A stretch of 16,681 nt of DNA from a virus: the IMG/VR virus record IMGVR_UViG_3300045988_050197, positions 1 to 16,681 of that record. One strand, given 5' to 3'. Made by a program: the position numbers and the translations under genes. Position 1 is the first letter of the stretch. Every line of letters begins with the position of its first letter. Under the pieces are notes generated by a model. It had not been told where the DNA came from. It was given only the letters and a program-made list of their open reading frames with translations, and did not search any database. Positions 1 through 16,580 of the stretch are shown here, in pieces.

Positions 1-20
1 CCCCATTAAAGTTCAAACCC
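1..20. repeat. Left inverted terminal repeat (CCCCATTAAAGTTCAAACCC); presumed terminal-protein-linked replication origin
   Basis: The reverse complement of 16662-16681 is identical to 1-20. Identity breaks at position 21 (c, versus t on the other end). A protein-primed polymerase and a terminal protein candidate are encoded in the same window. Confidence 0.93.
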
Positions 21-56
21 CGATCCCAGTCTCCCCAAAAAGTTGCATACAAGTAC

Positions 57-85
57 TTGACAAGTGGTCACACCTGTGCTATAAT
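57..85 (+). promoter_or_regulatory. Early promoter P1 (sigma-A consensus, extended -10)
   Basis: TTGACA (57-62), 17-nt spacer, TGc (77-79), TATAAT (80-85). Both hexamers are perfect. Confidence 0.8.
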
Positions 86-146
86 GTAGTTACAAGGTAA
101 GGAAAGAGGATCAATACCAGATAACATATGAAAGTGAAAACAAGGG

Positions 147-175
147 TTGACAAACTTATCAAGGTGTGGTATAAT
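147..175 (+). promoter_or_regulatory. Early promoter P2 (sigma-A consensus, extended -10)
   Basis: TTGACA (147-152), 17-nt spacer, TGg (167-169), TATAAT (170-175). It lies directly upstream of the first early ORF. Confidence 0.8.
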
Positions 176-207
176 AAAGGTACAAAGAAATGAAAGGAGA
201 TCGCAAT

Positions 208-381
208 ATGAAACCTAGAAAAGCGTTTTACATGGATAACATTGAAACCATAAAGCAATTAGAGGATAAAGTATTTGACTTGACAACTAAAATGGAACGT
301 GAATGCGGTAAGCAAGATTTCAGCGAAAAGCTCAATCAAGCATGGTCATTGTTATACGAGGTATGGAAAGAAAATAGTTAG
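208..381 (+). CDS. Hypothetical early protein (57 aa)
   Basis: The ORF-track frame runs 190-381. The internal ATG at 208 follows AAAGGAGA (193-200) at good spacing, so 208 is preferred over 190. I recognise no motif. Confidence 0.6.
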   Translation: MKPRKAFYMDNIETIKQLEDKVFDLTTKMERECGKQDFSEKLNQAWSLLYEVWKENS

Positions 382-402
382 TTACAAATAGGAGGTATTA
401 TC

Positions 403-738
403 ATGAGAATTGGTAAAAAATTACAGATACAAGCTAACAATGAAGTGTTAGAAGCGGTCGATCGTTTCAATGAGGAATTGAACTATTGTTCAATTAGTGT
501 AGGTAAGCGACTTCGATCATGTCAGGCATACGTGTATGAAACACCTAGTTTCTATGTATTGCGTAGTTACAATACAGTAGTAGCAATTATTGAAAAGAAA
601 ACAGACACTTGCTACGACTTTCTAAGAGGTGTTTACGAATACACCAATACGTCAGCACAGCATATTTCAAAGTTTGATCACGACTATGGACGTGGTGGAT
701 ACGGTTGTAAAGAACGTGTAACTTACAGAGAAGTATAA
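403..738 (+). CDS. Hypothetical early protein (111 aa)
   Basis: ATG preceded by AGGAGG (391-396). Tightly packed in the early operon. Function not recognised. Confidence 0.7.
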   Translation: MRIGKKLQIQANNEVLEAVDRFNEELNYCSISVGKRLRSCQAYVYETPSFYVLRSYNTVVAIIEKKTDTCYDFLRGVYEYTNTSAQHISKFDHDYGRGGYGCKERVTYREV

Positions 739-751
739 GGAGGGAGCTAAT

Positions 752-949
752 ATGAGTATATTTATAAAGTTTAATGATGGTCGCTATTCGCAGTTTGACG
801 AGTGTGATGGTATAAAGTTTACATATGGATCTGTAATAATATTTGAAGATAACGTACCTTTTGTCTATGCGGAGGATGAAATAAAAGAAATGATTTTTGT
901 GAATGAATATACATTTCAATACGCAAAACAACAAGGATATGAATTCTAA
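752..949 (+). CDS. Hypothetical small acidic early protein (65 aa)
   Basis: ATG preceded by AAGGAGGGAG. The protein is acidic and aromatic-rich. No motif recognised. Confidence 0.65.
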   Translation: MSIFIKFNDGRYSQFDECDGIKFTYGSVIIFEDNVPFVYAEDEIKEMIFVNEYTFQYAKQQGYEF

Positions 950-956
950 ATAACTA

Positions 957-1020
957 GGGCGCGTGGTTCGGCACGATTACAGTTTCAACGCTGTCTGCCC
1001 ATTAGCACCTACAAAGGTGT
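957..1020 (+). ncRNA. Structured intercistronic element R1: D-armless tRNA-like module plus 3' hairpin
   Basis: Closing stem 957-961/996-1000 (gggcg/tgccc). Hairpin cgtg-gttcgg-cacg (962-975). T-arm-like hairpin acagt-ttcaac-gctgt (979-994). Then hairpin gcacc-tacaaa-ggtgt (1005-1020). Homologous to 1572-1633 with compensatory changes. Confidence 0.55.
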
Positions 1021-1061
1021 AGAAACCAAATAACATCACATTAGAAAGAAGAGGTAACATT

Positions 1062-1361
1062 ATGGCAAGAGAAAAAATGGTAACAAGGACAGTAACACAG
1101 ACAACGGCAGAAGTTATGACGATTGATGTCACAACGGCAGAAGTACAGATATGTGAGTATACTATCGGCGGTACTTATGATACCAATGAAATATTACTCA
1201 AAAAGCTACAGAAGCTTTTCCAGACCGATACATTCAAGCTTGTAAACATCAATAGTGCCACTGTAGAGGATTTACTTCTCGGAATGACTGAAGAGGACTT
1301 CATCAGATACGCTACGGTTCTTCCACCTAGAAATGCTAGAAAAGAAAGTGAGGCTGAATAG
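1062..1361 (+). CDS. phi29 p6-like double-stranded DNA-binding (histone-like) protein, paralog A (99 aa)
   Basis: RBS AGAAGAGGT precedes the ATG. It is a gap-free paralog of 2220-2519. The N-terminal MVTRTVTQTTAEV and C-terminal GMTEEDFIRYATV resemble recalled phi29 p6 segments (TKTTVNV, LPVEKFLEVATV). It has an acidic tail. Confidence 0.5.
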   Translation: MAREKMVTRTVTQTTAEVMTIDVTTAEVQICEYTIGGTYDTNEILLKKLQKLFQTDTFKLVNINSATVEDLLLGMTEEDFIRYATVLPPRNARKESEAE

Positions 1362-1362
1362 T

Positions 1363-1542
1363 ATGAGAAACAAAAACACAGTAGACATTATGGTTAGTTT
1401 TAAAGGTGCAGACAAATATGCAGACGGTGAACACTTTGTAACAGATTCATTTTCACTTGATTCACGTGTATTAACGATTAAACAAGATTGCATCAACCGT
1501 ACATTTCGAATTGACTGTGTTGAATCAATTTACATATTCTAA
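1363..1542 (+). CDS. Hypothetical early protein (59 aa)
   Basis: The ATG at 1363 lies 1 nt after the upstream stop (1359-1361), with GTGAGG 9 nt upstream. The tracked start at 1333 would overlap the preceding gene without an RBS. Confidence 0.55.
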   Translation: MRNKNTVDIMVSFKGADKYADGEHFVTDSFSLDSRVLTIKQDCINRTFRIDCVESIYIF

Positions 1543-1571
1543 GAATGTATAAAGTTAGTCAAAACTAACAA

Positions 1572-1633
1572 GGGTGCGTGGTTGACACGGTTACAGTTTC
1601 AACACTGTACACCCTTTAGCACTAACAAGGTGT
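1572..1633 (+). ncRNA. Structured intercistronic element R2: second copy of the D-armless tRNA-like module plus 3' hairpin
   Basis: Closing stem 1572-1576/1610-1614 (gggtg/caccc). Hairpin cgtg-gttga-cacg (1577-1589). Hairpin tacagt-ttcaac-actgta (1592-1609). Hairpin 1619-1633. Stem differences from R1 are compensatory. Confidence 0.55.
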
Positions 1634-1677
1634 GGGAACTAATTAAAATAAAAACCAGAAAGAAAGAGGGAACAAAA

Positions 1678-1935
1678 ATGAGTAAACACTATGTAAAGTT
1701 AGTAAAGGAAATGATTAAAGAGGGCATCAAGGATCAAGTAACCATATCAGTTGTATACGGTTCTCTTGTGGTAGACATCTATGTAAATCACCGTTTATGT
1801 TGGCACACAACTATACCACATATTGAATTACGAGCCAGTTCATATATGACTGCGAAAATCGTAGCAGACACGATCAAAAATCAATATAAGCAGTTCATTT
1901 TGGATAAGCATTTTGTTCGAAAAAAATTCAAATAA
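1678..1935 (+). CDS. Hypothetical early protein (85 aa)
   Basis: The ATG at 1678 is preceded by AAGAGGGAA. The tracked start at 1582 would translate through structured element R2 and has no RBS. Confidence 0.6.
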   Translation: MSKHYVKLVKEMIKEGIKDQVTISVVYGSLVVDIYVNHRLCWHTTIPHIELRASSYMTAKIVADTIKNQYKQFILDKHFVRKKFK

Positions 1936-1938
1936 TAC

Positions 1939-1967
1939 TTGACATTTAGATCACCATATGCTATTAT
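1939..1967 (+). promoter_or_regulatory. Promoter P3 (sigma-A consensus, extended -10)
   Basis: TTGACA (1939-1944), 17-nt spacer, TGc (1959-1961), TATTAT (1962-1967). It lies 4 nt after the upstream stop codon. Confidence 0.75.
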
Positions 1968-1974
1968 ATAATTG

Positions 1975-2170
1975 TAGCAAGGTAATAAATAAAAATCCAA
2001 GTTACGTTTGCCATAGGTGGTGTAGGCTTCAAACCAACTACGCCACCTACCCCCCTTAGCAGGTGTAGTTTATTGGTAAAATGCGTGAATCTTAAATAAA
2101 CCCTATCATCGCTCATTCACGTGAAACAGGTTCAATCCCTGTCACCTGCTCTAGTGCTTTATAGCACTAA
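1975..2170 (+). ncRNA. ORF-free structured leader RNA transcribed from P3; candidate packaging RNA (pRNA) or processed leader
   Basis: A 284-bp gap with no ORF. It contains a 12-bp hairpin (2014-2025/2038-2049, one G.U), a C6 linker, a cloverleaf (2059-2150) and a 7-bp hairpin (2152-2169). The 5' end is inferred from P3. The 3' end is not defined by a terminator. Confidence 0.45.
2059..2150 (+). tRNA. tRNA-like cloverleaf with a non-canonical anticodon arm (7-bp stem, 24-nt loop); possibly a tRNA-Lys(CUU)-derived pseudo-tRNA
   Basis: 7-bp all-Watson-Crick acceptor stem (gcaggtg 2059-2065 / cacctgc 2143-2149). U8 and A9. D arm gttt-attggta-aaat with A14, G18, G19 and A21. T arm acagg-TTCAATC-cctgt (2126-2142) with G53, T54, T55, C56, A58 and C61. 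Discriminator t2150; no encoded CCA. The anticodon arm is cgtgaat (2084-2090), a 24-nt loop, then attcacg (2115-2121). Confidence 0.6.
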
Positions 2171-2219
2171 ACTATATCTTGACGTTTTTAAAAAATAAAG
2201 AAAGAGAGGAAGAAAAAAC

Positions 2220-2519
2220 ATGGCAAGAGTACCAATGGTAACACGAACAATTATCACAACAAAAGTCAACGTAATGTGCTTAGACATTGAGACAGGAGAA
2301 CCTTGTAACAGGTCTGTAGTAGTTCCGCGTACTTACAAGGACGACGAAAAGCTTCTTAAGAAAGTGAAAGAAGTTCTTGAAACGGAAACTTTGAAACCGG
2401 TACACATTGTTGACAAGGAAGAGATTGAAACTCTTTATGGCATGACAGAGCAGGAGTTTATTGAACACGCAGAAGTTCAGCCACCTAGAAAAGTAGCAGA
2501 AGAAAACGTAACAGAATAA
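2220..2519 (+). CDS. phi29 p6-like double-stranded DNA-binding protein, paralog B (99 aa)
   Basis: RBS GAGAGGA precedes the ATG. MVTRTIITTKVNVM and YGMTEQEFIEHAEV resemble recalled phi29 p6. It sits immediately upstream of the SSB/TP/polymerase genes, as gene 6 does in phi29. Confidence 0.55.
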   Translation: MARVPMVTRTIITTKVNVMCLDIETGEPCNRSVVVPRTYKDDEKLLKKVKEVLETETLKPVHIVDKEEIETLYGMTEQEFIEHAEVQPPRKVAEENVTE

Positions 2520-2543
2520 CAGAAAAAAGAGAGGTAAAATAAT

Positions 2544-2900
2544 ATGATAGAAATTAAAGCTTGCAGTAGAGAGTTTACAGATATTGAACAATATTTTATG
2601 ACGATTGCACCATCAATCACTTCAATGAAAGACGTACCAGATGGTACACGTATCACCGTTAACGGTTTTTTGACATTCGACGACACCAAAGACGCAACTG
2701 GTGAAACGTCAGAAATTCTTTCAGTAATTACACCAGAAATGAAAGTATATTCCTGTCAGTCAGCAACGTTCAAACGTTCGATTAGAGATATTTCAAATAT
2801 TATGAAAGGTAAATCGTTTACAATCGTAAAAACATCTGGAAAGACGAAAGCAGGGCGTGACTTTATCAACTGTGAGTTAGATGTAGAAAGTATTAAGTAA
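2544..2900 (+). CDS. phi29 p5-like single-stranded DNA-binding protein (118 aa)
   Basis: RBS AGAGAGGT precedes the ATG. VPDGTRITVNG, YSCQSATFKRSIRDISNI and FTIVKTSGKTKAGRDFINCEL parallel recalled p5 segments (LPDGTIIEANA, YSAISKTVAEAASDLIDL, FKVKVVQGTSSKGNVFFSLQL). Synteny is p6-p5-TP-pol. Confidence 0.6.
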   Translation: MIEIKACSREFTDIEQYFMTIAPSITSMKDVPDGTRITVNGFLTFDDTKDATGETSEILSVITPEMKVYSCQSATFKRSIRDISNIMKGKSFTIVKTSGKTKAGRDFINCELDVESIK

Positions 2901-2915
2901 CCTACAAATATTAAC

Positions 2916-2946
2916 AGCGTGTACTTTAATCGGTACGCGCTTTTTT
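2916..2946 (+). terminator. Intrinsic terminator/attenuator between the SSB and terminal protein genes
   Basis: 9-bp stem 2916-2924/2933-2941 (one G.U), 8-nt loop, and a T6 run at 2941-2946. Confidence 0.7.
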
Positions 2947-2966
2947 AGACAAGAGGGTGTTTTTTC

Positions 2967-3557
2967 ATGGCAAAAAGAAAAAAGAAAGTATCAGCTTATA
3001 CACGTAACAGAAACCGAATCAACAGCTACATAAGAAGATTAAACAAAAAAGGAGTTATCACCGATCTGTATTTTCCGACAGAAAGAGAACTAAAATTGCA
3101 AGGAATAAAAGGTGCAGAGTTAACTCGTTACACCAATGAGTTGAAAAAGGTAACGCCAGATTTCTTAAAAAGTGAAGCTATTCCAATTCCAAAAACGCCT
3201 CAGAACTTTAACGAAAATGGTGATTTAAAAGTCGGTGACGACGGAATGTTTAATAGGACAGTAATAGCAGACATAAAAAATAACGTATCACATTATCCTA
3301 AAGAGATAACTGATAAAGTTACTTCTTTAATTGACCAGTTAATAACTCAGCAGGGTATAGATGATGTAGTAGAAGCTATCTTGTCAGCGCCAGATTTACA
3401 TTACTATTTCAATAAAAATAAGTATGACAGTGAATCAGCGATAGAAGATTACGCTACAGGAATTATAAATGCACTTCCTAGCGCAAGTGACCAGTATAAA
3501 ATGGACTTAGCTGACGCTTTCGAGTTTAATGAATTAGGCTATACCATTGAAGATTAA
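2967..3557 (+). CDS. Terminal protein (protein primer), phi29 p3-like (196 aa)
   Basis: It lies immediately upstream of, and overlaps, the polymerase gene. The N-terminus is highly basic (MAKRKKKVSAYTRNRNRINSYIRRLNKKG, compare phi29 p3 KAKIARTKKKYG). The C-terminal half is acidic. Confidence 0.6.
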   Translation: MAKRKKKVSAYTRNRNRINSYIRRLNKKGVITDLYFPTERELKLQGIKGAELTRYTNELKKVTPDFLKSEAIPIPKTPQNFNENGDLKVGDDGMFNRTVIADIKNNVSHYPKEITDKVTSLIDQLITQQGIDDVVEAILSAPDLHYYFNKNKYDSESAIEDYATGIINALPSASDQYKMDLADAFEFNELGYTIED

Positions 3558-5529
3558 AAAGTACAGATATTTTATGTGCGACTTTGAAACAACTGTTTAC
3601 AAAGGACAAGAGTTCACAGAGGTATGGGCGTCTGCTTCGGTAGAACTATTCACAGAAGATGTTCAAATATTTCACTCGATTGATGAACAGTTTAATTACT
3701 TTGTAAGTCAAGATTGTAATATCGTAGCATATTATCACAACTTAAAGTTTGATGGTTCATTCTGGTTATCATATTTGATGATAGATAAAGGATTCAAACA
3801 AGCATACAGAAAAAAAGGTGAACGTATAAATGAGGTAGAGTGGTTACAGGAAAAATTTATGGAAAATAATTCCTTTAAATATAGTATATCAGATAAAGGA
3901 ATGTGGTACACTATTATTATAAAGGTGAATAACCACTTTATTGAAATAAGGGATTCACTAAAGCTTTTACCATTTAGTGTTAAAAGAATAGGTGATAATT
4001 TTGGCACAAAGCATAAGAAACTTGACATGGAATACACAGGTTTTCGATATGCAGGGTGTGAGATATCAGACAGTGAAAAAGAATACATTGCTAATGATGT
4101 CCTTGTTGTTAAAGAAGCACTTGAAATTATGTTCAATGAGGGGCATGATAAGCTGACTATAGGTTCTTGTTGTTTGGAAGAATACAAAGAGATATGTAAG
4201 AAATCAGTCAAGAACCAGTTAGAGTATAAGGAAATGTTTCCAGACGTGTATAATGTGAGTATTAACCCTATAGAATACACATATGAAAACGCAGGAGATT
4301 ATATAAGAAAATCATACAGAGGTGGTTGGTGTTATTTAGTAAAAGGTAAAGAGAACCAAATAAAAACAAACGGAACTACGGCTGACGTAAATTCACTGTA
4401 CCCCTCTATGATGTCGTCGGAATCGGGAAACAGGTATCCAGTTGGTAAACCTTGCTTCTGGAAAGGAAACTATATTCCAGACGAAGCTATAGCCGATAAT
4501 AAGTATTATTTTGTTAGAGTTAAAACAAGATTTTATATTAAGAAAGATAAGTTGCCATTTATCCAGATAAAAAGTTCTTACTTATATAAAGGTACAGAAG
4601 CACTTGAATCGTCAGATATTTATGACAGTAAAACAGATTCTTACTTTTCATTCTATAAAGATAAGGACGGTATATTAAGAGATACAAGGGTTGAATTAGT
4701 CTTGACAATGACAGATTACCAGTTGTTGAAAGACCACTATGATTTAGTTGATTTTGAAATACTGGATGGATGTTGGTTTTATGCTTTGAAAGGTATCTTT
4801 GATGAATACATAGAAAAGTACAAGCACCAGAAGCTTGTTAGTAAAGGTGCATTGCGTGAGTTGGCTAAACTTTTTCTTAATAATCTTTATGGAAAAATGG
4901 CATCTAGTAAAGATTCATCGTTTAAACTGGCATATGTGAAAGATGATAAAACAATTGGATTTTTACCTGTTACAGAATCAAACAAGAAAGCAGGGTATAT
5001 CCCTGTCGGTTCAGCTATCACAAGTTATGCAAGAAACTTTACTATTAGATCGGCACAGGCTAACTTCCATGGTGTTGATAAAGCAGGCTTTATTTATGCA
5101 GATACAGATAGCATACATTGTGATTTACCACCAGAAAAAATAGTTGGAATCAAGGTACATGATAAAAACTTTTGTTGTTGGAAATTGGAATCATGTTGGG
5201 ATAAAGCAATATTCACAAGGCAGAAAACCTATATTGAACACGTAGTTGCTGAAAATCTAATTCCAATTGAAAAACCATACAACAATATAAAATGTGCAGG
5301 TATGCCAAAACATTGTAAAGATTTATTTGAATTATCACTGGCAGGTGATGCAGATAAAAATAAAGAATGGAGTGATGATGAAAAAGAATTTCTGTTCGAT
5401 AAAGATAACAACCCTATTAAACGTGATTATAGTTCATTTAAAATAGGATTGAAAGTACCCGGAAAATTACGACCAAAGAGAATACGTGGTGGTGTATTAC
5501 TCGTAGAAACATCATATGAAATGAGGTAA
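3547..5529 (+). CDS. Protein-primed family-B DNA polymerase (phi29 p2-like)
   Basis: Exo I CDFETT. Exo II HNLKFDGSF. Exo III YIANDVLVV. Motif A DVNSLYPSMM. Motif B KLFLNNLYGKMAS. Motif C YADTDSIH. KxY motif KTYIEH. The tracked start is a TTG at 3547. This gives an N-terminal length like phi29 (MYSCDFETT versus RYFMCDFETT). The alternative start is the ATG at 3574. Confidence 0.97.
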   Translation: MKIKKYRYFMCDFETTVYKGQEFTEVWASASVELFTEDVQIFHSIDEQFNYFVSQDCNIVAYYHNLKFDGSFWLSYLMIDKGFKQAYRKKGERINEVEWLQEKFMENNSFKYSISDKGMWYTIIIKVNNHFIEIRDSLKLLPFSVKRIGDNFGTKHKKLDMEYTGFRYAGCEISDSEKEYIANDVLVVKEALEIMFNEGHDKLTIGSCCLEEYKEICKKSVKNQLEYKEMFPDVYNVSINPIEYTYENAGDYIRKSYRGGWCYLVKGKENQIKTNGTTADVNSLYPSMMSSESGNRYPVGKPCFWKGNYIPDEAIADNKYYFVRVKTRFYIKKDKLPFIQIKSSYLYKGTEALESSDIYDSKTDSYFSFYKDKDGILRDTRVELVLTMTDYQLLKDHYDLVDFEILDGCWFYALKGIFDEYIEKYKHQKLVSKGALRELAKLFLNNLYGKMASSKDSSFKLAYVKDDKTIGFLPVTESNKKAGYIPVGSAITSYARNFTIRSAQANFHGVDKAGFIYADTDSIHCDLPPEKIVGIKVHDKNFCCWKLESCWDKAIFTRQKTYIEHVVAENLIPIEKPYNNIKCAGMPKHCKDLFELSLAGDADKNKEWSDDEKEFLFDKDNNPIKRDYSSFKIGLKVPGKLRPKRIRGGVLLVETSYEMR

Positions 5530-5534
5530 AAAAT

Positions 5535-5714
5535 ATGGAATTTGAATTTAAAGATATGAAATGTAAATGTGGTAGTAATAAATTTGCAATGATGAAAAAA
5601 GGGAGTCAAACAGGACTATATTGTGCTAGTTGTGGGAAATGGATAAAGTGGTTAAGTAAAGACGAGAAAAATTTAATTAAATTGAAATTAAATTCAATAT
5701 ATGGTATGAAATAA
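5535..5714 (+). CDS. Small zinc-ribbon protein (59 aa), absent from the ORF track
   Basis: The ATG at 5535 lies 8 nt after GAGG (5523-5526). My translation is MEFEFKDMKCKCGSNKFAMMKKGSQTGLYCASCGKWIKWLSKDEKNLIKLKLNSIYGMK. It has a CxC...CxxC pattern, and the stop is at 5712-5714. Confidence 0.55.
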   Translation: MEFEFKDMKCKCGSNKFAMMKKGSQTGLYCASCGKWIKWLSKDEKNLIKLKLNSIYGMK

Positions 5715-5758
5715 CATCTAGAGTGACATATATAGAGTGTTCATTATATGCAAATAGT

Positions 5759-5801
5759 AAAAAACAGAGGGAGAACTAAGTTCTTACCCTCTGTTTTATT
5801 T
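5759..5801. terminator. Bidirectional intrinsic terminator between the convergent early operon and ATPase gene
   Basis: Stem 5765-5776/5780-5793 (12 bp with a 2-nt bulge, 3-nt loop). It is flanked by A6 (5759-5764) and TTTTATTT (5794-5801), so either strand reads a hairpin followed by a U-run. Confidence 0.75.
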
Positions 5802-5918
5802 ATATCTGTAACTCATGTGTTATTCATTGCGTTCAGCGAAAACGACAAGTAACACAGGCTCTATACTTTCAAGAGTGCTATCCTATGTTCTCAATGATAA
5901 TCGCATGAGTAGATATAC

Positions 5919-6953
5919 TTAGTAACTAAGTGCGCTTAATGTGGCTTCTTTACATCTTAAATCTTTAAATCTAAAGCAACCACGTTCAAATAAATACCTA
6001 AGATTATTCAAAAAGAAATCGTTACGTTTTAACATAACATAATTGATTTCGTGATCGTCGGTAGTTACACTGATTTTTAAGCCAAAGGTGCGATCTGGTC
6101 TATCATCACAGTATAAGTAGCCATTCTCAGTAAATTCTCTTATACCGAACTCACAACCTTTATATTTAAGTGTGCAAAGGTATTTATTTTTTCCAGTAGG
6201 TCTTTCAATAAAACTCTGATTATCATTCAAATAAACACATTCACTACTATATCCAACATAACTGTCTTTCTTAAAAGCTCGGTTGAATCCACTGGTTTTC
6301 TGTGCTTCGCTTGCTGATTTATTGAATCCCTGTTCTAATACAAACCCGTCACCACGTAAAAATTTTGTATCTTTATGCAGTCTAGCACTAATCTCCATTT
6401 TTGTGTAATATGGATTGATAAGACTGACAGGATTCGCAATCATATACACAGGTACATAACGAACCTGTTTACCCTGTCCTCTTGCGATAGACGTATGAAT
6501 ACTGATGAACTTTCTTACTTCATCAGGACAATAGTGATTAGATTCGCTTTGAAATTCATCAAATTCTAGCCTAGAAATATCAGCAAATAAATGGCTGTAT
6601 TTTTTCAACTGATCCGCACTGTTTAAACTGATAGCATACCCACAGCTTTTTTCGTCTAAGAATAACTCATGAAAGATTCCACTCGCACGTCTTTTTGAAG
6701 TCATGGTATGTCCTATGAAGAAAAGACTGCCTATGTCTTTATAGAATTTATCTACCACGTTATCAAGTTCATAATTATAACGGTAAATAAGTCCAAACTT
6801 TTCGCCTTTATCAAGAAACCTGTTTATGCATAGTCTACTAAAATAAGTTGTCTTTCCTGCGGTTCGGTTGGAAGTAACCATATAGATTTCTGGTTTGTTA
6901 CCGTTGATATCTAACATTGACAATAATTTAGTACCGTCATAATATTTTGGCAT
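5919..6953 (-). CDS. DNA encapsidation (packaging) ATPase, phi29 gp16-like (344 aa)
   Basis: Walker A TSNRTAGKTT. Walker B LEFDEFQ. ANPVSLINPYY and GCFRFKD parallel recalled gp16 segments (NAVSVVNPYF, GYLRFDN). The ATG at 6953 is preceded by GAAAGGAG at 9-nt spacing. The tracked start at 7007 lacks an RBS. Confidence 0.9.
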   Translation of the reverse strand: MPKYYDGTKLLSMLDINGNKPEIYMVTSNRTAGKTTYFSRLCINRFLDKGEKFGLIYRYNYELDNVVDKFYKDIGSLFFIGHTMTSKRRASGIFHELFLDEKSCGYAISLNSADQLKKYSHLFADISRLEFDEFQSESNHYCPDEVRKFISIHTSIARGQGKQVRYVPVYMIANPVSLINPYYTKMEISARLHKDTKFLRGDGFVLEQGFNKSASEAQKTSGFNRAFKKDSYVGYSSECVYLNDNQSFIERPTGKNKYLCTLKYKGCEFGIREFTENGYLYCDDRPDRTFGLKISVTTDDHEINYVMLKRNDFFLNNLRYLFERGCFRFKDLRCKEATLSALSY

Positions 6954-6978
6954 ATCAAAAAACTCCTTTCCATACTTA

Positions 6979-7007
6979 ATTATAACACACCCATTGATTT
7001 TTAGCAA
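6979..7007 (-). promoter_or_regulatory. Promoter of the packaging ATPase gene (minus strand)
   Basis: On the minus strand: TTGCTA (7007-7002), 17-nt spacer ending TGt, TATAAT (6984-6979). Confidence 0.65.
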
Positions 7008-7022
7008 GTATTGTGATATAAT
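6994..7022 (+). promoter_or_regulatory. Late-operon promoter (plus strand)
   Basis: TTGATT (6994-6999), 17-nt spacer, TGa (7014-7016), TATAAT (7017-7022). It lies 30 nt upstream of the holin start. Confidence 0.65.
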
Positions 7023-7052
7023 AAAATTGAATTAAATAAGAAAGGAGATACC

Positions 7053-7400
7053 ATGGAAAACTTATATCCAATCTTTGTAGCGTTAGGGTTTAACGCCCTA
7101 GACGTACTAACCGGAATCGTGTCAGCCATAAAAAATAAAGACATTAAATCCACCAAACTACGTGACGGTCTTTTTAAAAAAGTGGGTTTTATTTTCTGTT
7201 ATTTTACGGCATGGTTAGTTGATGAATACGGTGGTGTTATAGGGTTCAAACTAGGTGTAGCAATATTACCAGTTATTGTCCTTTATGTATGCACGACCGA
7301 GCTAGTTTCAATACTAGAAAACATATCCAAAATTAACTCAGACCTTTTACCGAGCAAACTTATGGAACTTTTTCACGTTTCAAACACCAGAAAGGAGTAA
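7053..7400 (+). CDS. Holin (Phage_holin_4_1 / TcdE-like family)
   Basis: RBS AAAGGAG precedes the ATG. There are three hydrophobic segments. ALDVLTGIVSAIKNK...TELVSILENISK matches my recollection of the family signature. It lies directly upstream of the endolysin. Confidence 0.8.
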   Translation: MENLYPIFVALGFNALDVLTGIVSAIKNKDIKSTKLRDGLFKKVGFIFCYFTAWLVDEYGGVIGFKLGVAILPVIVLYVCTTELVSILENISKINSDLLPSKLMELFHVSNTRKE

Positions 7401-7403
7401 CAA

Positions 7404-8126
7404 ATGGCTGACATTAACAAAGCTGTTTCTTTCATGATTAACACAGCAAAGGACAATATTCATGGTTATGACCAACAGCACAGAAACGGTCCAGATTATG
7501 ACTGTAGTTCACTGGTAGGGGCAGCGTTATACTATGCAGGTTTTGCTGTTTCACCGTATTCATGGACTGGCAACTTAGAATCACAGTTAAGAAAAGCAGG
7601 TTTTGTCGATTGCAAAGCACCATGGAAAGCAGGTGATATTCATTTAAACAGAGGAAACCACGTATGTATGAGTATCAACGAAAACCAGATAGTTGAAGCG
7701 TCAATTAACGAAAAAGGAACAGCCACAGGTGGTAAAACTGGCGACCAGACAGGTAAAGAAATTCAGATTACTTCCTATTATAATTATTATCTAGGATGGG
7801 ATTTACACTTACGATTTACTGGTACAAACAATAACATCAATCAAGCTTATACGATTGAAGAAATAGCGCGTCAGGTTATTGCAGGTAAATGGGGTGTAGG
7901 TAACGAGAGAAAAAGACTCTTAGAAAAAGCTGGTTATAAATATGATGAAGTACAAAGCTATGTAAATGGACTCTTTACAAAAGGTGGTTATAAGTCGAAC
8001 GGTGAAGTTGCAAGAGAAGTTATTAAAGGTGTATGGGGCGTAGGAAAAGAAAGAAAAAACAGACTTGAAAAAGCGGGTTATGATTATAACGAGATTCAAA
8101 AACTCGTTAATCAGATGTTAGGTTAA
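7404..8126 (+). CDS. Endolysin: N-terminal cysteine amidase/peptidase (Amidase_5 / CHAP-NlpC-P60-like) plus two CW_7-like wall-binding repeats
   Basis: NGPDYDCSSLVGAALYYAGF resembles the catalytic-Cys region of phage Dp-1 Pal (GPDSYDCSSS). A His lies in GNHVCMS. Two ~40-aa repeats are present (nt 7851-7973 and 7998-8120): VIAGKWGVGNERKRLLEKAGYKYDEVQSYVN and VIKGVWGVGKERKNRLEKAGYDYNEIQKLVN. Confidence 0.85.
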   Translation: MADINKAVSFMINTAKDNIHGYDQQHRNGPDYDCSSLVGAALYYAGFAVSPYSWTGNLESQLRKAGFVDCKAPWKAGDIHLNRGNHVCMSINENQIVEASINEKGTATGGKTGDQTGKEIQITSYYNYYLGWDLHLRFTGTNNNINQAYTIEEIARQVIAGKWGVGNERKRLLEKAGYKYDEVQSYVNGLFTKGGYKSNGEVAREVIKGVWGVGKERKNRLEKAGYDYNEIQKLVNQMLG

Positions 8127-8130
8127 TACA

Positions 8131-9213
8131 ATGCCAGACATAAACAAAGCTTATTCATGGGCAATCGAAACGTGTAATGCCCCTAACGTGGGATACAGTC
8201 AGTCATATAGAAACGCCCAGACCGTAGGTGGCATTACATATTACGATTGCAGTTCTTTTATCAACTACGCACTCTTAGCAGGTGGATTTACAACACCGAA
8301 TTACGCGCCAAAATATAATGCATTTACAACTTATACCGAAGCAGACGTTTTACTTTCACTAGGTTTCAAAGAAGTTGATGCAAGTGGCGAATACTTATCA
8401 GGTGACATTGGTCTTTCAGTTTCCCATACAGAAATGTGCTATAAAGGTGGTAAGGGAAAAGGTGTGTTCATGGGGGCGCACACAGACAATGCACCATTAC
8501 AGCATCAAGTTAGCATAGGATCAACAACAGGAAATCAAAATTACGAAACATCATTCCCACGTTTATTTAGATACGGTGATGGTGGTGCATCTGGTTACGG
8601 ATGTAGTGCATACGTTGTATCAGCAATATGTGGCAATATGTGGCAGGAAAGTGGTGTAAACCCAGGAATGTGGGAAGGACAGAATGTTAGTTCATTTACG
8701 AGTTTAAATGTTGGTTTTGGGCTAGGACAATGGACAAACACTGGTGGAGATACGCATGGTAGACTTTATAAGTTACATGAATGGCTTCAAGAAAATGGGT
8801 ATCAAGACGATGATGGTAATGGGCAACTTCAATATTTAATTCACGAAAATGTATGGTATTCCAGAGATGAAGCTAGTCAATATGCTACGTTAACAGATTT
8901 TCTTACTTCCAGTAGTACAGATTTAGCTGAATTAACTCATGCTTTTAACGTAGGTTGGGAGGGAATACACGACCACACATGGGATTTCCGTGTAACCTAT
9001 GCAGAAAAATGTTATGACTTTATTACGAAACACGCTAATGACACCTCAATCAACAAATGGTTTTCAAAAAATGAGTTCTTATCAGTCGACGAAAGACTCA
9101 ACAATGCTGTTCTTATCTACAGATTCTTATCGGCAGGTGGTGGAGGTGGTGGTACGCACACTACAAAAAAGAAATCAATGCCAGTTTGGATGATGCTAAA
9201 ATATCATTATTAA
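8131..9213 (+). CDS. Virion-associated (tail) peptidoglycan hydrolase: cysteine amidase/peptidase domain plus phage tail lysozyme domain
   Basis: The N-terminus is paralogous to the endolysin (MPDINKAYSW...YYDCSSFINYALLAGGF, His in SHTEMC). The central part, ICGNMWQESGVNPGMWEG...GFGLGQWT, fits the phage tail lysozyme signature. The C-terminus carries a G6 tract and a 19-aa tail. Confidence 0.75.
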   Translation: MPDINKAYSWAIETCNAPNVGYSQSYRNAQTVGGITYYDCSSFINYALLAGGFTTPNYAPKYNAFTTYTEADVLLSLGFKEVDASGEYLSGDIGLSVSHTEMCYKGGKGKGVFMGAHTDNAPLQHQVSIGSTTGNQNYETSFPRLFRYGDGGASGYGCSAYVVSAICGNMWQESGVNPGMWEGQNVSSFTSLNVGFGLGQWTNTGGDTHGRLYKLHEWLQENGYQDDDGNGQLQYLIHENVWYSRDEASQYATLTDFLTSSSTDLAELTHAFNVGWEGIHDHTWDFRVTYAEKCYDFITKHANDTSINKWFSKNEFLSVDERLNNAVLIYRFLSAGGGGGGTHTTKKKSMPVWMMLKYHY

Positions 9214-9232
9214 GTTGAAAGGAGGTGATTAA

Positions 9233-9529
9233 ATGGCAGTAAAAACTAGAGAAGAAATTCTGGAAAGTTTCAGAACAAGACTAGGAGAAAATCCTGACGA
9301 CGATTCCATTTCGTTTTTAGAGGATGTTACCGACACACTGGATGACTTTGAAAAAAGAGCAAACGGTGACGGTACAGATTGGAAAAGCAAGTATGAAGAA
9401 AACGATGCAAATTGGAGAAAGAAATACACAGAAAGATTTTTCTCAGATGAACCAGAACCAGAATCAGAACCAGAGCCAAAACCAGATAATACCCCAAGTA
9501 CATTTTCAGATTTATTTAAGGAGATTTAA
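9233..9529 (+). CDS. Scaffolding protein (phi29 gp7 position; 98 aa)
   Basis: RBS AAGGAGGTGA precedes the ATG. The protein is small, acidic and predicted helical. It lies immediately upstream of the major capsid gene and is as long as I recall phi29 gp7 to be. Confidence 0.6.
   Translation: MAVKTREEILESFRTRLGENPDDDSISFLEDVTDTLDDFEKRANGDGTDWKSKYEENDANWRKKYTERFFSDEPEPESEPEPKPDNTPSTFSDLFKEI
9449..9484 (+). repeat. Imperfect hexanucleotide tandem repeat (GAACCA-like x6) encoding EPEPESEPEPKP
   Basis: Units gaacca, gaacca, gaatca, gaacca, gagcca, aaacca. They are in frame with the scaffold ORF. Confidence 0.9.
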
Positions 9530-9532
9530 AAG

Positions 9533-10942
9533 ATGGCTAGAAGAATTGCTAACAGTACGCTTAATGCGTCTACAATTGACATTATGAACGTTATCCGACA
9601 GAACGCTTCATATGATTATCAGCAGAACGTACCTGCTGTTGCAAAGGCAAGTGACATTCCTAAAGTCGGAGAAGTTATCTACGGTACACCTGCTTTCGCA
9701 AACCAGTTTATCAACGCACTTGTAAACAGAATTGCTATTGTGCGTGTGCAGTCTGCAAACTTTAACAATCCGTATTCTATTCTTAAAAAAGGGTATCTTG
9801 AGTTCGGTGAAACTGTAGAAGATATTTTTGTATCAATTGCAAAAGCAGTAGACTTTAGTGCAGAAAAAGCACCGAAGAGAGAGTTCCAGAGAAGTATTCC
9901 AGATGTTCGTTCAGCTTTCCACGTGATGAACTGGCGTGTGATGTACCCAGTAACCATTCAAGACGAAGATTTAAGGCAGGCATTTCTTAGTATTGATGGT
10001 GTACAGAATCTTATTGCTAAGATTGTTGATGCAGTTTACACAGGTGCAGAGTATGACGAGTTCCTACTCTTTAAGTACCTGTTGATTAAAGCAATCAGTC
10101 ATGGTAGAGTGCATCCAATCTCAATCGGTACTGGCGAAGTACTTACAGAAAGTGCAGTACAGTTCAGAGGTACTTCTAACTTATTACCATTTATGTCGAG
10201 TGAGTTCAATGAAGCAGGCGTTAAAACAAACACACCAAAAGAAAGACAGGTTATTTTCATGGACGCTATGTTCAATGCACAGTATGATGTGAATGTACTT
10301 GCAAGTGCTTTCAACATGGACAAAGCAGATTTTATGGGAAGACTGTTCCTTATTGATAACTGGTCAGAGTTCGACAATGAACGTTTTGACGTTATCAGAG
10401 CTAATTCTGATGGTATCGAAGAAGTTACCACTGAAGAACTTGCACTGTTGAAAAATGTAAAAGCTGTTATTCTGGATGAAAACTGGTTTCAGGTTTATGA
10501 CAACAATAACAAATTTACAGAGAAGTATGTAGCATCTGGTTTGTACTGGAATTATTTCTATCATACATGGAAAACAGTTTCCAATTCACCGTTCGCTAAC
10601 GCTTGTGTATTTGTAACAGATGATGCTACAATCACATTACCTGCAACAATCACAGCACATGTTGATGCTAAGGACGAAAGTGACATTGCTACGGTATTTA
10701 CGATCAGTCCAGACTTAGATGGTCAGAGCCTTGAACCGCACAATGTAAACTTTATTCAGACCGAAACTTTGACTACAGCAGGTATCGCAGTTCAGCCTTA
10801 TGGTGGCATTATGATTCCTAGCAATCAGTTAGATACAGAGATTACTCTGGTAGCAGAGATTAACGGTACTAAGTACACAGCTACTGCGACTATTACTGGT
10901 GCTACAACTGTTGACACAGCTATTACATTAAAAAAAGTGTAA
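9533..10942 (+). CDS. Major capsid protein (phi29 gp8-like, HK97 fold) with a C-terminal Ig-like domain
   Basis: NQFINALVNRIAIVRVQS, TIQDEDLRQAF, VNVLASAFNMDKADFMG and WFQVYDNNNKF...GLYWNYFYHTWKTVSNSPFANA parallel recalled gp8 segments. The last ~105 aa (nt ~10625-10939) are T/A/V-rich and beta-strand-like, as in the gp8 BIG2 domain. Confidence 0.93.
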   Translation: MARRIANSTLNASTIDIMNVIRQNASYDYQQNVPAVAKASDIPKVGEVIYGTPAFANQFINALVNRIAIVRVQSANFNNPYSILKKGYLEFGETVEDIFVSIAKAVDFSAEKAPKREFQRSIPDVRSAFHVMNWRVMYPVTIQDEDLRQAFLSIDGVQNLIAKIVDAVYTGAEYDEFLLFKYLLIKAISHGRVHPISIGTGEVLTESAVQFRGTSNLLPFMSSEFNEAGVKTNTPKERQVIFMDAMFNAQYDVNVLASAFNMDKADFMGRLFLIDNWSEFDNERFDVIRANSDGIEEVTTEELALLKNVKAVILDENWFQVYDNNNKFTEKYVASGLYWNYFYHTWKTVSNSPFANACVFVTDDATITLPATITAHVDAKDESDIATVFTISPDLDGQSLEPHNVNFIQTETLTTAGIAVQPYGGIMIPSNQLDTEITLVAEINGTKYTATATITGATTVDTAITLKKV

Positions 10943-11002
10943 TGATAAGGGTGTGTGGTGGTATTAAGTTACTGCCACGCATCAGTTAGAAAGGAATTTA
11001 TT

Positions 11003-12553
11003 ATGTATATATATCCTCAGACTAATATAAAGTTACTAAAAGATGTGCCACTAGATACAACATATGATCACACATTATGGTTTGACAATGCAAGCGCACA
11101 GTTCGAATATTTCAGTGCGTTGACAAAGTACAATATGAATAACTACAGTTATCAAAGGGTACAAAAAGGAGTAGCAAGAGTCGGCATTAAAGCTGACAGT
11201 CTTTATGATTGCAACTACATGATGTTTCAAAATTCAGCTTATGGTAATAAGTGGTTTTATGCTTTTATCACAAGTGTTGAATATGTGAATGACGTAACAT
11301 CTAACATTAGTTTTGAAATTGATGTCATGCAAACATGGTTATTTGACTGTTCACCAGATTATTGTTTTGTTGAAAGAGAACACTCAGAAAGTGACCAGAT
11401 AGGTGCTAACATTATACCAGAGAACCTTGACACTGGTGAATATGTATTTAATGACTATCAAGATTTAACGCCTGTGCTACAAGCTATGTGCGTTATAGTT
11501 ATGATATGCGATAATGCAGAAGATCCTAGTGGAAACATGATAGAGGGTATTTATAGTGGGTGTACACTTATGGCTTTTAACACAACTGATAAAGGTCTTG
11601 ATGCTTTAAACAAAACACTCTCGAATTTTAATCAAAAACCAGAAGCTATCGTTGGTATGTATATGTGTCCAGTTATCGCAACAGAGCAGACTATACCAGA
11701 CAAGGGTGAAATTTTAGGACGTTCATTTAAGGTTCATAGTTTTAATGTTGGAATTAAAGCTGTTACCACAAATGACAAACTAAATGGTTATAAGCCTAGG
11801 AATAATAAGTTATACACTTACCCATATAACTTTCTAAGTGTAGGAACTGGAAAAAATAATGCTGAATTTAGATACGAATTTTTTGATAATCTTGCAAACG
11901 CTTTCGAGTGCTATGTACCAGTACAAATGCCTATTCAGATTGCTCTAAGACCTAAAGGGTATAAAGGCGCAAAAGTTAGTGATACACTTAATAACGAAAC
12001 GTTAATTCTTGACGACTACACTATGTGCAGTTGGTCTACAGATTCGTTCAAAGCATGGGTTGCACAAAATGCTCTACCAATTGCAACAGTAGGTACGGCA
12101 GGTGCATCAGCACTAGGTTTGTCTGCTTTAGGTGTAAGCTTTCCACCTTTAGGCGTGTTAGCAGGCGTTGGAACTGTTATGAATATGCTATCACAAGGTT
12201 ATAAAGCGTCTATTAAGGCTGATGTTGCAAGAGGTAACATTAACAGCGGTAATATAGACATTGCAAGTAAGAAAAAATCTTTTTATGGCGGAAGAATGAG
12301 TGTAAGTTACCAATATGCTAGAATGATTGACGATTTCTTTACTAAGTTTGGTTACGCAACTAAGAGAGTAAAAATTCCTAACCGTAACAGTAGACCGCAT
12401 TGGAACTATGTGAAAACTGTTAGTGCTACAATGACAGGAAGTGTGCCGTCTGATGATATGAAAAAAATTTGTAGTATCTATGATAACGGTGTGACATTCT
12501 GGAAACATGGGTATGAAGTTGGTAGATACGACTTAGACAATAGTCCAGTGTAA
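11003..12553 (+). CDS. Tail knob / distal tube protein (phi29 gp9-like)
   Basis: YMMFQNSAYGNKWFYAFITSVEY...FEIDVMQTWLFD and FFTKFGYATKRVKIPNRNSRPHWNYVKT...IYDNGVTFWKH closely parallel recalled gp9. The ATG at 11003 follows GAAAGGAA. The tracked GTG at 10955 lacks an RBS and runs through a hairpin. Confidence 0.92.
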   Translation: MYIYPQTNIKLLKDVPLDTTYDHTLWFDNASAQFEYFSALTKYNMNNYSYQRVQKGVARVGIKADSLYDCNYMMFQNSAYGNKWFYAFITSVEYVNDVTSNISFEIDVMQTWLFDCSPDYCFVEREHSESDQIGANIIPENLDTGEYVFNDYQDLTPVLQAMCVIVMICDNAEDPSGNMIEGIYSGCTLMAFNTTDKGLDALNKTLSNFNQKPEAIVGMYMCPVIATEQTIPDKGEILGRSFKVHSFNVGIKAVTTNDKLNGYKPRNNKLYTYPYNFLSVGTGKNNAEFRYEFFDNLANAFECYVPVQMPIQIALRPKGYKGAKVSDTLNNETLILDDYTMCSWSTDSFKAWVAQNALPIATVGTAGASALGLSALGVSFPPLGVLAGVGTVMNMLSQGYKASIKADVARGNINSGNIDIASKKKSFYGGRMSVSYQYARMIDDFFTKFGYATKRVKIPNRNSRPHWNYVKTVSATMTGSVPSDDMKKICSIYDNGVTFWKHGYEVGRYDLDNSPV

Positions 12554-12568
12554 TAAGGTGGTGATAAA

Positions 12569-13459
12569 GTGGGACGAAGAAAACATGACATTTTTGACGA
12601 AAGTATGGTGTTGAATAACCTTACTTATCGGCAGTATTTAAACAGGTTAACAGAACTCGCTATATCCATGTTTGAATGGAAGAACCTGCCAGATACAGTT
12701 GATGAAAGATATTTGGAATTACATTTATTCGAAACGGGATGCATGGTTTACTTCCAAGACGATATATTAGGAGACTTGTGCTTAGACAACATTACCAATG
12801 GTAAGCTTAGTGTGTATGGTGATCCTTTATTAAGACGTGCTTACAGTGGTTACAACAATTATCAGAAGTTACTATCTTATAAAGATAGCGTCATTATCTG
12901 GAATAATTTATTGCATACTAACAGTATTCTTGACGTTAAAATGTTTGCAAGAAGATTATACAATATTGATAGAATTATTGATGTTAACGCAAACGCACAA
13001 AAAACACCAGTACTGTTACAAGGTAGTGAAAAACAAAGACTTACTCTTTTGAATTTATATAAAGAGTATGACGGAAATGCACCTTTTATTTTTGGCGACA
13101 ATAATCTTGATATTAACTCATTGAAAGCATTTAGCACTAATGCTCCATATGTGTGTGATAAACTGTACCAGTTAAAAACACAGATATGGAATGAAGCGTT
13201 AACTTATCTCGGAATCAGTAATATCAATATTCAAAAGAAAGAAAGATTGATTAGTGACGAGGTTACAAGAAATCAAGGTGGCACTATTGCTAGTAGATAT
13301 AGCAGGCTTGAAAGTAGACGTAAAGCTGTTAAGAAAATTAACAAAATGTTTGGAACTAACATTGAAGTTAATTATCGTGAAGATTTTCAGCAGGTTGGTA
13401 ACGATGATGTGACAGATAACGCAGGTAAAGCAACGACAGGCGGTGAAGAAAATGAGTAA
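12569..13459 (+). CDS. Head-tail connector / portal (phi29 gp10-like upper collar)
   Basis: GTG start 7 nt after AAGGTGG. FEWKNLPDT, NANAQKTPVLLQGSE, EYDGNAPFIFG, APYVCDKL and WNEALTYLGISNINIQKKERLISDEV parallel recalled gp10. The N-terminus is basic (MGRRKH). Confidence 0.93.
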   Translation: MGRRKHDIFDESMVLNNLTYRQYLNRLTELAISMFEWKNLPDTVDERYLELHLFETGCMVYFQDDILGDLCLDNITNGKLSVYGDPLLRRAYSGYNNYQKLLSYKDSVIIWNNLLHTNSILDVKMFARRLYNIDRIIDVNANAQKTPVLLQGSEKQRLTLLNLYKEYDGNAPFIFGDNNLDINSLKAFSTNAPYVCDKLYQLKTQIWNEALTYLGISNINIQKKERLISDEVTRNQGGTIASRYSRLESRRKAVKKINKMFGTNIEVNYREDFQQVGNDDVTDNAGKATTGGEENE

Positions 13460-14231: not shown

Positions 14232-14246
14232 AAGGAGGAATTTAAC

Positions 14247-16571: not shown

Positions 16572-16580
16572 TTTTTGAAT

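Follow-up and report, generated by a model that had tools for sequence, protein, structure and literature searches.

Covarying mini tRNA-like elements upstream of early genes in a clade of phi29-like gut phages: candidate RNA-processing signals

What role could two tRNA-like repeats, about 80% identical, play between the early genes of a small virus? The question is raised by IMG/VR virus record IMGVR_UViG_3300045988_050197, of which positions 1 to 16,681 were analysed as one stretch of DNA (the window, 16,681 nucleotides (nt)). Two repeats in it, R1 and R2, lie upstream of a gene named p6a and of a gene starting at position 1678, and a larger transfer RNA (tRNA)-like element, R3, lies upstream of a gene named p6b. 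A sequence-only reading of the window had described R1 and R2 as D-armless mini tRNA-like repeats. This computational study of the window and its relatives indicates that R1 and R2 are genuine RNA modules, structured and strand-specific, and akin to the tRNA-like gene at 2059-2150. We see an even chance that they are tRNA-mimic processing signals, which would be cut by host ribonuclease (RNase) P and/or RNase Z and would leave hairpin-protected messenger RNAs (mRNAs) downstream. R1 and R2 are made up of the following parts.

957..1001, + strand: R1, mini tRNA-like element (sequence; fold; covariance-model match of 97 bits; covariation)
957-961 / 996-1000: R1 P1, acceptor-like closing stem, GGGCG/TGCCC, with G961.T996
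962-965 / 972-975: R1 P2, GG-loop hairpin, CGTG/CACG, loop GTTCGG
976-978: R1 linker
979-983 / 990-994: R1 P3, T-arm-like hairpin, ACAGT/GCTGT, with T983.G990, loop TTCAAC
995 and 1001: R1 bulge C995 and discriminator-like A1001
1005..1020, + strand: hairpin 3' of R1, GCACCT-ACAA-AGGTGT, beginning 4 nt past R1, no U-tract (fold; stem covaries in relatives)
1570..1617, + strand: R2, mini tRNA-like element (sequence; fold; covariance-model match of 92 bits)
1572-1576 / 1610-1614: R2 P1, acceptor-like stem, GGGTG/CACCC, extendable to 7 base pairs (bp) (1570-1576 / 1610-1616)
1577-1580 / 1586-1589: R2 P2 hairpin
1593-1597 / 1604-1608: R2 P3, T-arm-like hairpin, with T1597-A1604
1619..1633, + strand: hairpin directly 3' of R2, GCACT-AACAA-GGTGT, no U-tract (fold; alignment)

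The two repeats are, as had been claimed, much alike within unrelated flanks: 54 of 70 aligned columns agree, identity is about 82% over a 44-nt core, and the 18-mer TTACAGTTTCAACNCTGT occurs twice against an expectation of 0.14. Their minimum-free-energy folds are the proposed ones, a closing stem around two hairpins with a further hairpin behind it, and all bases cited for them were correct. The placement of a hairpin within 5 nt after each of R1, R2 and R3 was likewise found. The junction strands of R1 and R2 are 0, 3 (ATT or GTT) and 1 nt long. R2 can also form an alternative T arm (1592-1596/1605-1609, with an 8-nt loop) that gives a continuous stack of 7 + 5 bp; this is the form, with a 7-bp acceptor and a 5-bp T stem, returned by the rule-based finder described below. 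The comparison of R1 with R2 alone offers three informative substitutions only.

A wider comparison was obtained by retrieving 80 related loci via the polymerase and searching them with a covariance model derived from these two elements. This search returned 49 matches with E < 1e-3, usually two per genome, in related phi29-like gut phages of 16-17 kilobases (kb), all of them on the polymerase-coding strand. Double changes are present at 12 of the 14 pairs of the resulting alignment, and 99.0% of its cells hold standard pairs, compared with 22-52% for slid partners; none of 500 shuffles was as good. The proposal that differences between the copies keep the pairing is thereby borne out in relatives. 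As this alignment had been fitted to the covariance model, 25 diverse copies were tested again with MAFFT and RNAalifold, which recovered all three helices and showed compensation at 10 of 14 pairs. We regard the R1/R2 fold as established by these comparative data. The last pair of the T stem is U-A in 21 sequences and U.G in 19, and the 49-homologue alignment contains 34 G.U cells overall and only 6 non-pairs. Because the 34 G.U cells would be A.C mismatches on the other strand, the folded molecule corresponds to the + strand, i.e., to the mRNA; all credible matches of the covariance model are on this strand.

Across about 50 homologues the loops are the most conserved parts, with a near-invariant TTCAA or TTCGA (a UUCRA T-loop) and a GG at the 3' end of the P2 loop. 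The downstream hairpin covaries as well (GCACC/GGTGC, GTACC/GGTAC, CGGC/GCCG and GCTCA/TGAGC), and conservation is limited to the 44-nt core, the flanks being divergent. These observations make it very unlikely that R1 and R2 are decaying relics of a tRNA-gene duplication, or recombination "boundary" repeats between cassettes, with no function as RNA. Since p6a and p6b are paralogues, a tRNA-like element could have been co-duplicated with them, and the gene content between the elements does vary among relatives. Nevertheless, purifying selection on an RNA fold is indicated by the double changes in 12 of the 14 pairs, by the 99% pairing, by G.U pairs that fit one strand only and by the invariance of the loops, and the core alone is conserved. 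With regard to their distribution, a 23-mer of the R1 type was absent from 185,579 bacterial and archaeal genomes, and the 29 contigs in which it did occur were all viral and 13-17.5 kb long, nearly all of them 15-17.5 kb. A host-derived repeat or mobile element was ruled out, given this confinement to viral contigs.

Three genes follow the three elements.

1062..1361, + strand: p6a, p6-like double-stranded DNA (dsDNA)-binding paralogue, invariably 3' of an R1-type element (PHROG 6370, E = 1.3e-5; synteny)
1678..1935, + strand: 85-amino-acid gene, invariably 3' of an R2-type element (synteny in relatives)
2220..2519, + strand: p6b, second p6-like dsDNA-binding paralogue, which opens the replication block of p6b, SSB, terminal protein and polymerase (PHROG 6370, E = 1.2e-5)

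The elements had been placed 40-70 nt before start codons, and the measured distances are 61, 61 and 70 nt. Among relatives, the elements end 46-66 nt before the homologue of p6a or of gene 1678 and the upstream gene varies; their linkage is therefore to the downstream gene. A search of the 85-amino-acid protein against Pfam and PHROG gave no match. The spacing could also suit operators bound by a protein with RNA affinity, be it one encoded by the phage or a tRNA-binding protein of the host, that would control translation or stability of the p6-like and neighbouring genes. We consider such a role unlikely. The fixed distance of 46-66 nt before particular genes, two of the three being paralogues, and the conserved loops would agree with it, but about 35-40 nt separate the elements from the ribosome-binding site downstream, which they leave unoccluded. 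Moreover, the sequences used by different lineages are unrelated and have tRNA-type features alone in common, canonical tRNAs can fill the site, and the Pfam and PHROG scans identified no candidate RNA-binding protein. In front of both p6a and p6b there is a tRNA-like module with a hairpin and then a similar A-rich region that holds the ribosome-binding site, and the two genes are 76% identical over 45 nt comprising this site and the gene start.

The relationship with tRNA is most directly seen upstream of p6b, where the window carries the following features.

1939..1967, + strand: near-consensus sigma-70-type promoter, TTGACA-17-TATTAT with TG (11 of 12 matches in the promoter scan; conserved in relatives)
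1977..2049, + strand: structured leader of two hairpins, 1977-2011 and 2014-2049 (fold z = -3.7 and -4.9; conservation)
2059..2150, + strand: R3, full-size tRNA-like element with normal acceptor, D and T arms and a 24-nt expansion of the anticodon loop (Rfam RF00005, 51.3 bits)
2152..2169, + strand: hairpin TAGTGCT-TTAT-AGCACTA, beginning 2 nt past R3, no U-tract (fold)

The promoter at 1939-1967 is predicted to drive a transcript comprising the leader, the tRNA-like element and p6b-SSB. ARAGORN called no tRNA gene in the window, R3 included, and for R3 in near-identical relatives it gave inconsistent calls, Leu(taa) or Phe(aaa), with mispaired anticodon stems. On account of these calls and of the expanded anticodon loop, R3 was rejected as a decoding tRNA. 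At the same site, distant relatives carry a canonical tRNA-Met(CAT) or tRNA-Gln(TTG) of 72-74 nt, and other relatives have forms of 80-81 nt with a degenerate anticodon arm, a form of 61-62 nt whose anticodon arm is a 3-bp GNRA stub and which still scores 44.5 bits as a tRNA, or minis of 46-55 nt, one of which, 54 nt long, is found in the cultured Clostridium phage CS229P2. Overall, an element with acceptor and T arm is present at the p6b site in at least 49 of 74 loci, is 46-103 nt long and ends 10-135 nt before the gene. This series suggests that the acceptor stem and T arm are constant at the p6b site and that the anticodon part is dispensable.

R1 and R2 had been thought homologous to the cloverleaf at 2059-2150 on two grounds, which fared differently. 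The shared T-arm sequence stands, whereas the match of CGTG/CACG to the anticodon stem is a single observation that fails in other lineages. In locus L072, the mini before the gene-1678 homologue and the large tRNA-like element both read ATAG/CTAT where the window has ACAG/CTGT. R1 and R2 appear to be reduced derivatives or functional copies of the tRNA or tRNA-like gene kept before the main p6-like gene.

Several observations concern the surroundings of R3. R3 with its hairpin (2056-2178) has a sub-threshold match to Rfam SpF41 (25.7 bits; gathering score 52), a Streptococcus small RNA whose consensus likewise resembles a tRNA-like fold followed by a hairpin. The leader motif GTTACGTTTGCCATAGGTGG is kept beyond the close relatives of the window, and the region 1972-2058 has a C-run just before the 5' end of the tRNA-like element. 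The leader architecture (hairpin, GCCA, hairpin, CCCC, tRNA) persists even where relatives carry a canonical tRNA. Complementarity between the leader-hairpin loop and the R3 D-loop (CCAA/TTGG in the window, CTAT/ATAG in L005) was found by eye to be inconsistent across relatives and was dismissed.

Are such minis restricted to one sequence family? A second-generation covariance model reached the window's own subclade only and missed distant mini families, because other subclades use unrelated sequences. A rule-based search was therefore applied, defined by an acceptor of 5-7 bp, a spacer of 8-32 nt, and a 5-bp T stem with at least 2 G-C pairs around a 6-8-nt loop with TTCRA. It returned 80 elements on the + strand and 4 on the - strand of 896 kb, compared with 0-3 in each of ten shuffles. 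Their distribution is strongly uneven, with 77 in the 241 kb upstream of the polymerase gene versus 2 in the other 638 kb. These elements form at least 22 sequence clusters, 16 of which have a significantly stable hairpin 2-6 nt past the acceptor 3' strand; the sequence after the hairpins is A-rich and shows no U-tract. The acceptor sequences vary freely among families and contain no common identity element. In the sequences of the minis examined, no element is followed by CC and no CCA is encoded after any of them. In three loci (L026, L028 and L030, with elements from about 800, 847 and 306, respectively), the stop codon TAG of the upstream open reading frame overlaps the first bases of the acceptor stem (TAGGTGT...), and cleavage at the 5' end of the element would therefore fall within or right after the stop codon. 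The minis were rejected as a general feature of phi29-like phages, as none was present in phi29 or in the early regions of two faecal phages with 44% and 42% polymerase identity.

The convergence of unrelated families bears on two further explanations. The first is that the elements are passive stability elements, in which the three-way junction and hairpin would block exonucleases working 3'-5' or 5'-3' or insulate from upstream ribosomes, their tRNA likeness reflecting origin only. This is improbable in our view, albeit the structures are stable, conserved and located in intergenic spacers with a hairpin next to them, as such a role would require. It does not account for the strongest conservation falling on two loops, the unpaired UUCRA T-loop and the GG loop, for the convergence of unrelated families on an acceptor/T-arm geometry instead of simple hairpins, or for the presence of bona fide tRNAs at the same site in relatives. 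The second is that the excised minis are themselves the functional product and serve as decoys for a host factor, such as a tRNA-directed defence nuclease, a tRNA-processing or tRNA-modifying enzyme, or the CCA-adding enzyme. Phages are known to use tRNAs of their own against tRNA-targeting defences, each genome has up to three copies of the element, with early expression predicted from strong promoters, and elbow-like features are kept. We nonetheless rate this as unlikely: known anticodon nucleases need an anticodon loop, which is absent here, the varying acceptors share no identity element, and the close link with a hairpin and gene downstream argues for a role in cis.

Which arm of the tRNA do the minis lack? 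The description of R1 and R2 as D-armless now seems doubtful, as their internal hairpin has the position of the D arm and, in the window's clade and in several unrelated families, a loop ending in GG. Across unrelated families its common form is a 3-4-bp stem directly after the acceptor 5' strand with a 5-6-nt loop ending in GG, for instance CGTG-GTTNGG-CACG, AGCG-ATAGG-CGCT, AAAG-AAACGG-CTTT, CAGA-GTTGGG-TCTG, TCGT-GATGG-ACGA and CCG-ACAGG-CGG. The position of the hairpin and the GG, which is like G18 G19 of the D arm, together with the intact UUCRA T-loop, suggest a retained tRNA "elbow". It is more likely the anticodon arm that is missing from the minis, at least functionally. R1 and R2 accordingly seem to mimic the "top half" of a tRNA, i.e., an acceptor stem stacked on a UUCRA T arm with a small GG-loop hairpin and without anticodon arm.

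When compared with canonical tRNAs and with known RNA classes, R1 and R2 show a mixed picture. An Rfam scan in E-value mode up to E = 10 found no tRNA match at R1 or R2, only R3 scoring as such, and no credible known RNA family for R1 and R2. In place of a canonical anticodon arm (5-bp stem and 7-nt loop), they have, besides the T arm, a single internal hairpin with a 4-bp stem and a 5-6-nt loop. Their T arm, ACAGT-TTCAAC-RCTGT, corresponds to the canonical one (5-bp stem and U54-U55-C56-R57-A58 loop), and the T arms of relatives are of the GGTTCGATTCC type. Regarding the acceptor/T stack, which in tRNA has a 7-bp acceptor and 12 bp in all, R2 can form 7 + 5 bp without a bulge, and acceptors in relatives have 5-7 bp. 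As in the t-elements of plant mitochondria, a non-canonical tRNA-like fold with a conserved T arm lies between genes of an operon without an intervening promoter or terminator.

Other classes were considered and rejected. A prohead RNA (pRNA) of the phi29 type has about 120 nt and a three-way junction with two arms, and R1 and R2 have only 45 nt; R3 with its leader was discarded as well, being a cloverleaf with a separate leader, and a far better covarying candidate lies 3' of the ATPase gene. No Rfam pRNA match was found anywhere in the window. The tRNA-like domain of transfer-messenger RNA (tmRNA) was set aside since ARAGORN found no tmRNA, acceptor position 3 is G-C in R1 and R2, and the acceptors vary freely. 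A small self-cleaving ribozyme was also discarded, with no Rfam ribozyme match at E <= 10.

The transcriptional setting is given by the following features.

57-85 and 147-175, + strand: two perfect sigma-70-type promoters at the start of the + strand operon (promoter scan)
2916-2941: strong intrinsic terminator between the SSB gene and the terminal-protein and polymerase genes, first of the + operon (terminator scan)
5757-5797: bidirectional terminator between the + strand early block and a minus-strand ATPase-RNA unit (terminator scan)

With promoters at 57-85 and 147-175 and the first terminator at 2916-2941, R1 and R2 lie inside a polycistronic early transcript. It is therefore of interest whether they could be intrinsic terminators or attenuators that divide the early operon, as might be thought of a structured element with a hairpin in an intergenic spacer. 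This explanation is hardly credible: neither element nor hairpin is followed by a U-tract, A-rich sequence being found there instead, the terminator scan was negative at these sites though it found clear terminators at 2916-2941 and in the 5757-5797 region, and the promoter scan found no promoter 3' of R1 or R2 to restart transcription. An intrinsic terminator was rejected, none being called at 950-1030 or 1565-1645.

We now return to processing by tRNA enzymes. Host RNase P would cut at the 5' side of the acceptor stem, and host RNase Z, or RNase Z alone, would cut past the discriminator-like base, so that the upstream cistrons would be parted from the downstream gene. The downstream mRNA (of p6a, gene 1678 or p6b) would then start 1-4 nt ahead of a stable hairpin, which an A-rich spacer separates from a strong ribosome-binding site; in the case of p6a, the hairpin at 1005-1020 would be the protective 5' terminus. 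Stem-loops at the 5' terminus were reportedly shown by Emory in 1992 to resist 5'-end-dependent decay, and such a hairpin-led end may do the same here. The upstream fragment would lose its 3' continuation and keep an unprotected 3' end, and the excised mini would probably be discarded. As a predicted outcome, p6a, gene 1678 and the p6b replication block would be expressed more strongly and for longer than the early genes that precede them, through differential stability and dosage. A study on B. subtilis RNase Z describes contacts of the enzyme with the acceptor stem and T arm and a block of cleavage by cytidines past the discriminator (PMC7479834). The part that selection appears to keep across the clade is this same acceptor stem and T arm, which fits "tRNA punctuation". 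In B. subtilis, one third of the tRNAs have no encoded CCA; RNase P acts on these first and RNase Z second, and a stem-loop lies immediately behind some of them (PMC1874595).

Several observations nevertheless weigh against cleavage by these enzymes. Nearly all copies of the R1/R2 type have A at position -1, where bacterial RNase P prefers U. The R1 acceptor/T stack consists of 5 bp, a T-C mismatch and 4 bp, compared with 12 bp in tRNA, and several mini families have acceptors of just 5-6 bp; the position and efficiency of cleavage could therefore be unlike what is seen in tRNAs. In R2 and in a relative (L003:1470), the P2 loop has GA or GC instead of GG with no compensating change in the T-loop, so that an elbow-like contact between the loops is no more than hypothetical. 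Six of the 22 clusters have no clear downstream hairpin. Single-sequence shuffle z-scores of R1 and R2 are weak, ranging from -1.3 to -2.0, and thermodynamics alone (z = -1.8 and -1.4) is therefore insufficient to establish their structure. The RNase Z study implies that the B. subtilis enzyme is less tolerant of aberrant pre-tRNAs than archaeal enzymes (PMC7479834). Lastly, a look-up of contigs, whose ends might have served as proxies for RNA ends, returned one metagenomic DNA scaffold only.

The closest known counterparts are the t-elements of plant mitochondria, which are tRNA-like with a conserved T arm, coincide with the 5' and 3' ends of mRNAs and are cleaved by RNase P and RNase Z, and whose role is played by canonical tRNAs at other genes (Forner et al. 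2007, PMC1920247). Like the phage minis, t-elements have non-canonical tRNA-like folds with a conserved T arm and are located inside mRNA precursors beside coding regions, and the series from tRNA via tRNA-like element to mini at one syntenic phage site matches the logic of t-elements. In contrast, the phage minis belong to phages of Gram-positive gut bacteria, are 37-61 nt long, lack an anticodon arm and are regularly followed by a hairpin.

Other systems share parts of this arrangement. Wilusz et al. are said to have found, in 2008 and 2011, that the mascRNA and MEN-beta tRNA-like elements at the 3' ends of MALAT1 and NEAT1 recruit RNase P and then RNase Z and the CCA-adding enzyme. There too, as proposed for the phage, a tRNA mimic in a longer transcript sets the ends of flanking RNA and an adjacent structure stabilises the flank; however, these are eukaryotic nuclear long non-coding RNAs with a four-arm cloverleaf, and the protected RNA lies upstream (triple helix), whereas the RNA presumed to be protected in the phage is the downstream one (5' hairpin). 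Mitochondrial tRNA punctuation was reportedly described by Ojala in 1981, the tufB operon is a bacterial tRNA-mRNA co-transcript, and RNase P is said to cleave operon mRNAs (Li and Altman in 2003, Alifano in 1994). In these cases tRNA-processing enzymes part cistrons and the segments differ in stability, as we propose for the phage, but the units are real tRNAs or ill-defined RNase P sites and not dedicated minis without anticodon arm. The tRNA-like domain of tmRNA, YrlA and T-loop modules are elbow mimics, and they resemble the minis in having an acceptor stem, a T arm and a reduced D-loop analogue without anticodon arm. The tmRNA domain differs in its G3:U70 alanine identity element and in being joined to pseudoknots and a tag reading frame, whereas the phage acceptors share no identity element. 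Finally, the C4 antisense RNA of phages P1 and P7 and the CI antisense RNA of phage P4 are matured by RNase P. As is proposed for the minis, they are phage-encoded non-tRNA substrates of host RNase P released from longer transcripts; there, however, the released antisense RNA is the effector, and they are not T-arm tRNA mimics between early genes.

The sequence-only reading knew of no such processing in phi29-like phages, and our literature searches, too, brought up no account of such elements, be it in phi29-like phages or in others. On this subject, a 2024 review of phi29-like phages goes no further than to mention predicted tRNAs in some metagenomic clusters (PMC11476376). At the level of the clade, we tentatively propose, while holding it slightly less probable than its opposite, that small phi29-like phages of gut Clostridia use anticodon-less mini tRNA mimics of 37-61 nt as punctuation of the early operon, hijacking host RNase P and RNase Z to obtain hairpin-capped, stable mRNAs for abundant p6-like proteins. 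If this is correct, bacterial viruses would have an equivalent of the tRNA punctuation of mitochondria and of plant t-elements, and the minis would show how a 16-kb virus sets gene dosage post-transcriptionally without a nuclease of its own. If cut by RNase P and RNase Z, the minis would be the first tRNA mimics to be described as dedicated processing signals of a phage operon, and among the smallest natural substrates of both enzymes. An evolutionary series, with bona fide tRNA genes at one end and minimal modules for enzyme recognition at the other, appears to be still visible in the clade; its occurrence at one syntenic site, from canonical tRNA to 37-nt mini, amounts to a natural deletion experiment on the tRNA parts needed by the recognising factor. 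The modules might be reused as compact RNA-processing parts in Gram-positive synthetic biology, and the cultured relatives (Clostridium phages CS229P1-3 on C. symbiosum) make the hypothesis directly testable.

With regard to the genome as a whole, the ends of the 16,681-bp window form a perfect 20-bp inverted repeat (1-20 and 16662-16681, CCCCATTAAAGTTCAAACCC), which marks the window as a complete linear genome of the protein-primed type. By Pfam and PHROG matches, the genes for replication are phi29-like. The nearest annotated relatives are phages from faecal metagenomes and the cultured phages CS229P1-3, with a polymerase identity of 65%; phi29 is distant, at 33%. The remaining annotated features are as follows.

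2544-2900: phi29-type SSB (PF17427)
2967-3557: probable terminal protein
3547-5529: protein-primed family-B DNA polymerase (Pfam PolB)
5919-7007, - strand: packaging ATPase gene
5801-5917, - strand: candidate prohead RNA, 117 nt, directly after the stop codon of the ATPase gene (5919-7007) and followed by the bidirectional terminator at 5757-5797

The RNA at 5801-5917 is probably the pRNA of this clade, a reading based on its topology, which is that of the phi29 prohead RNA. Located beside the packaging ATPase gene, it would extend pRNA-dependent packaging beyond Bacillus phages. It has no Rfam match. A long 5'/3' helix closes a three-way junction with two hairpin arms (fold z-score -3.9), and the RNA is conserved across 79 distinct sequences from related loci, with 26 of 33 predicted pairs compensated.

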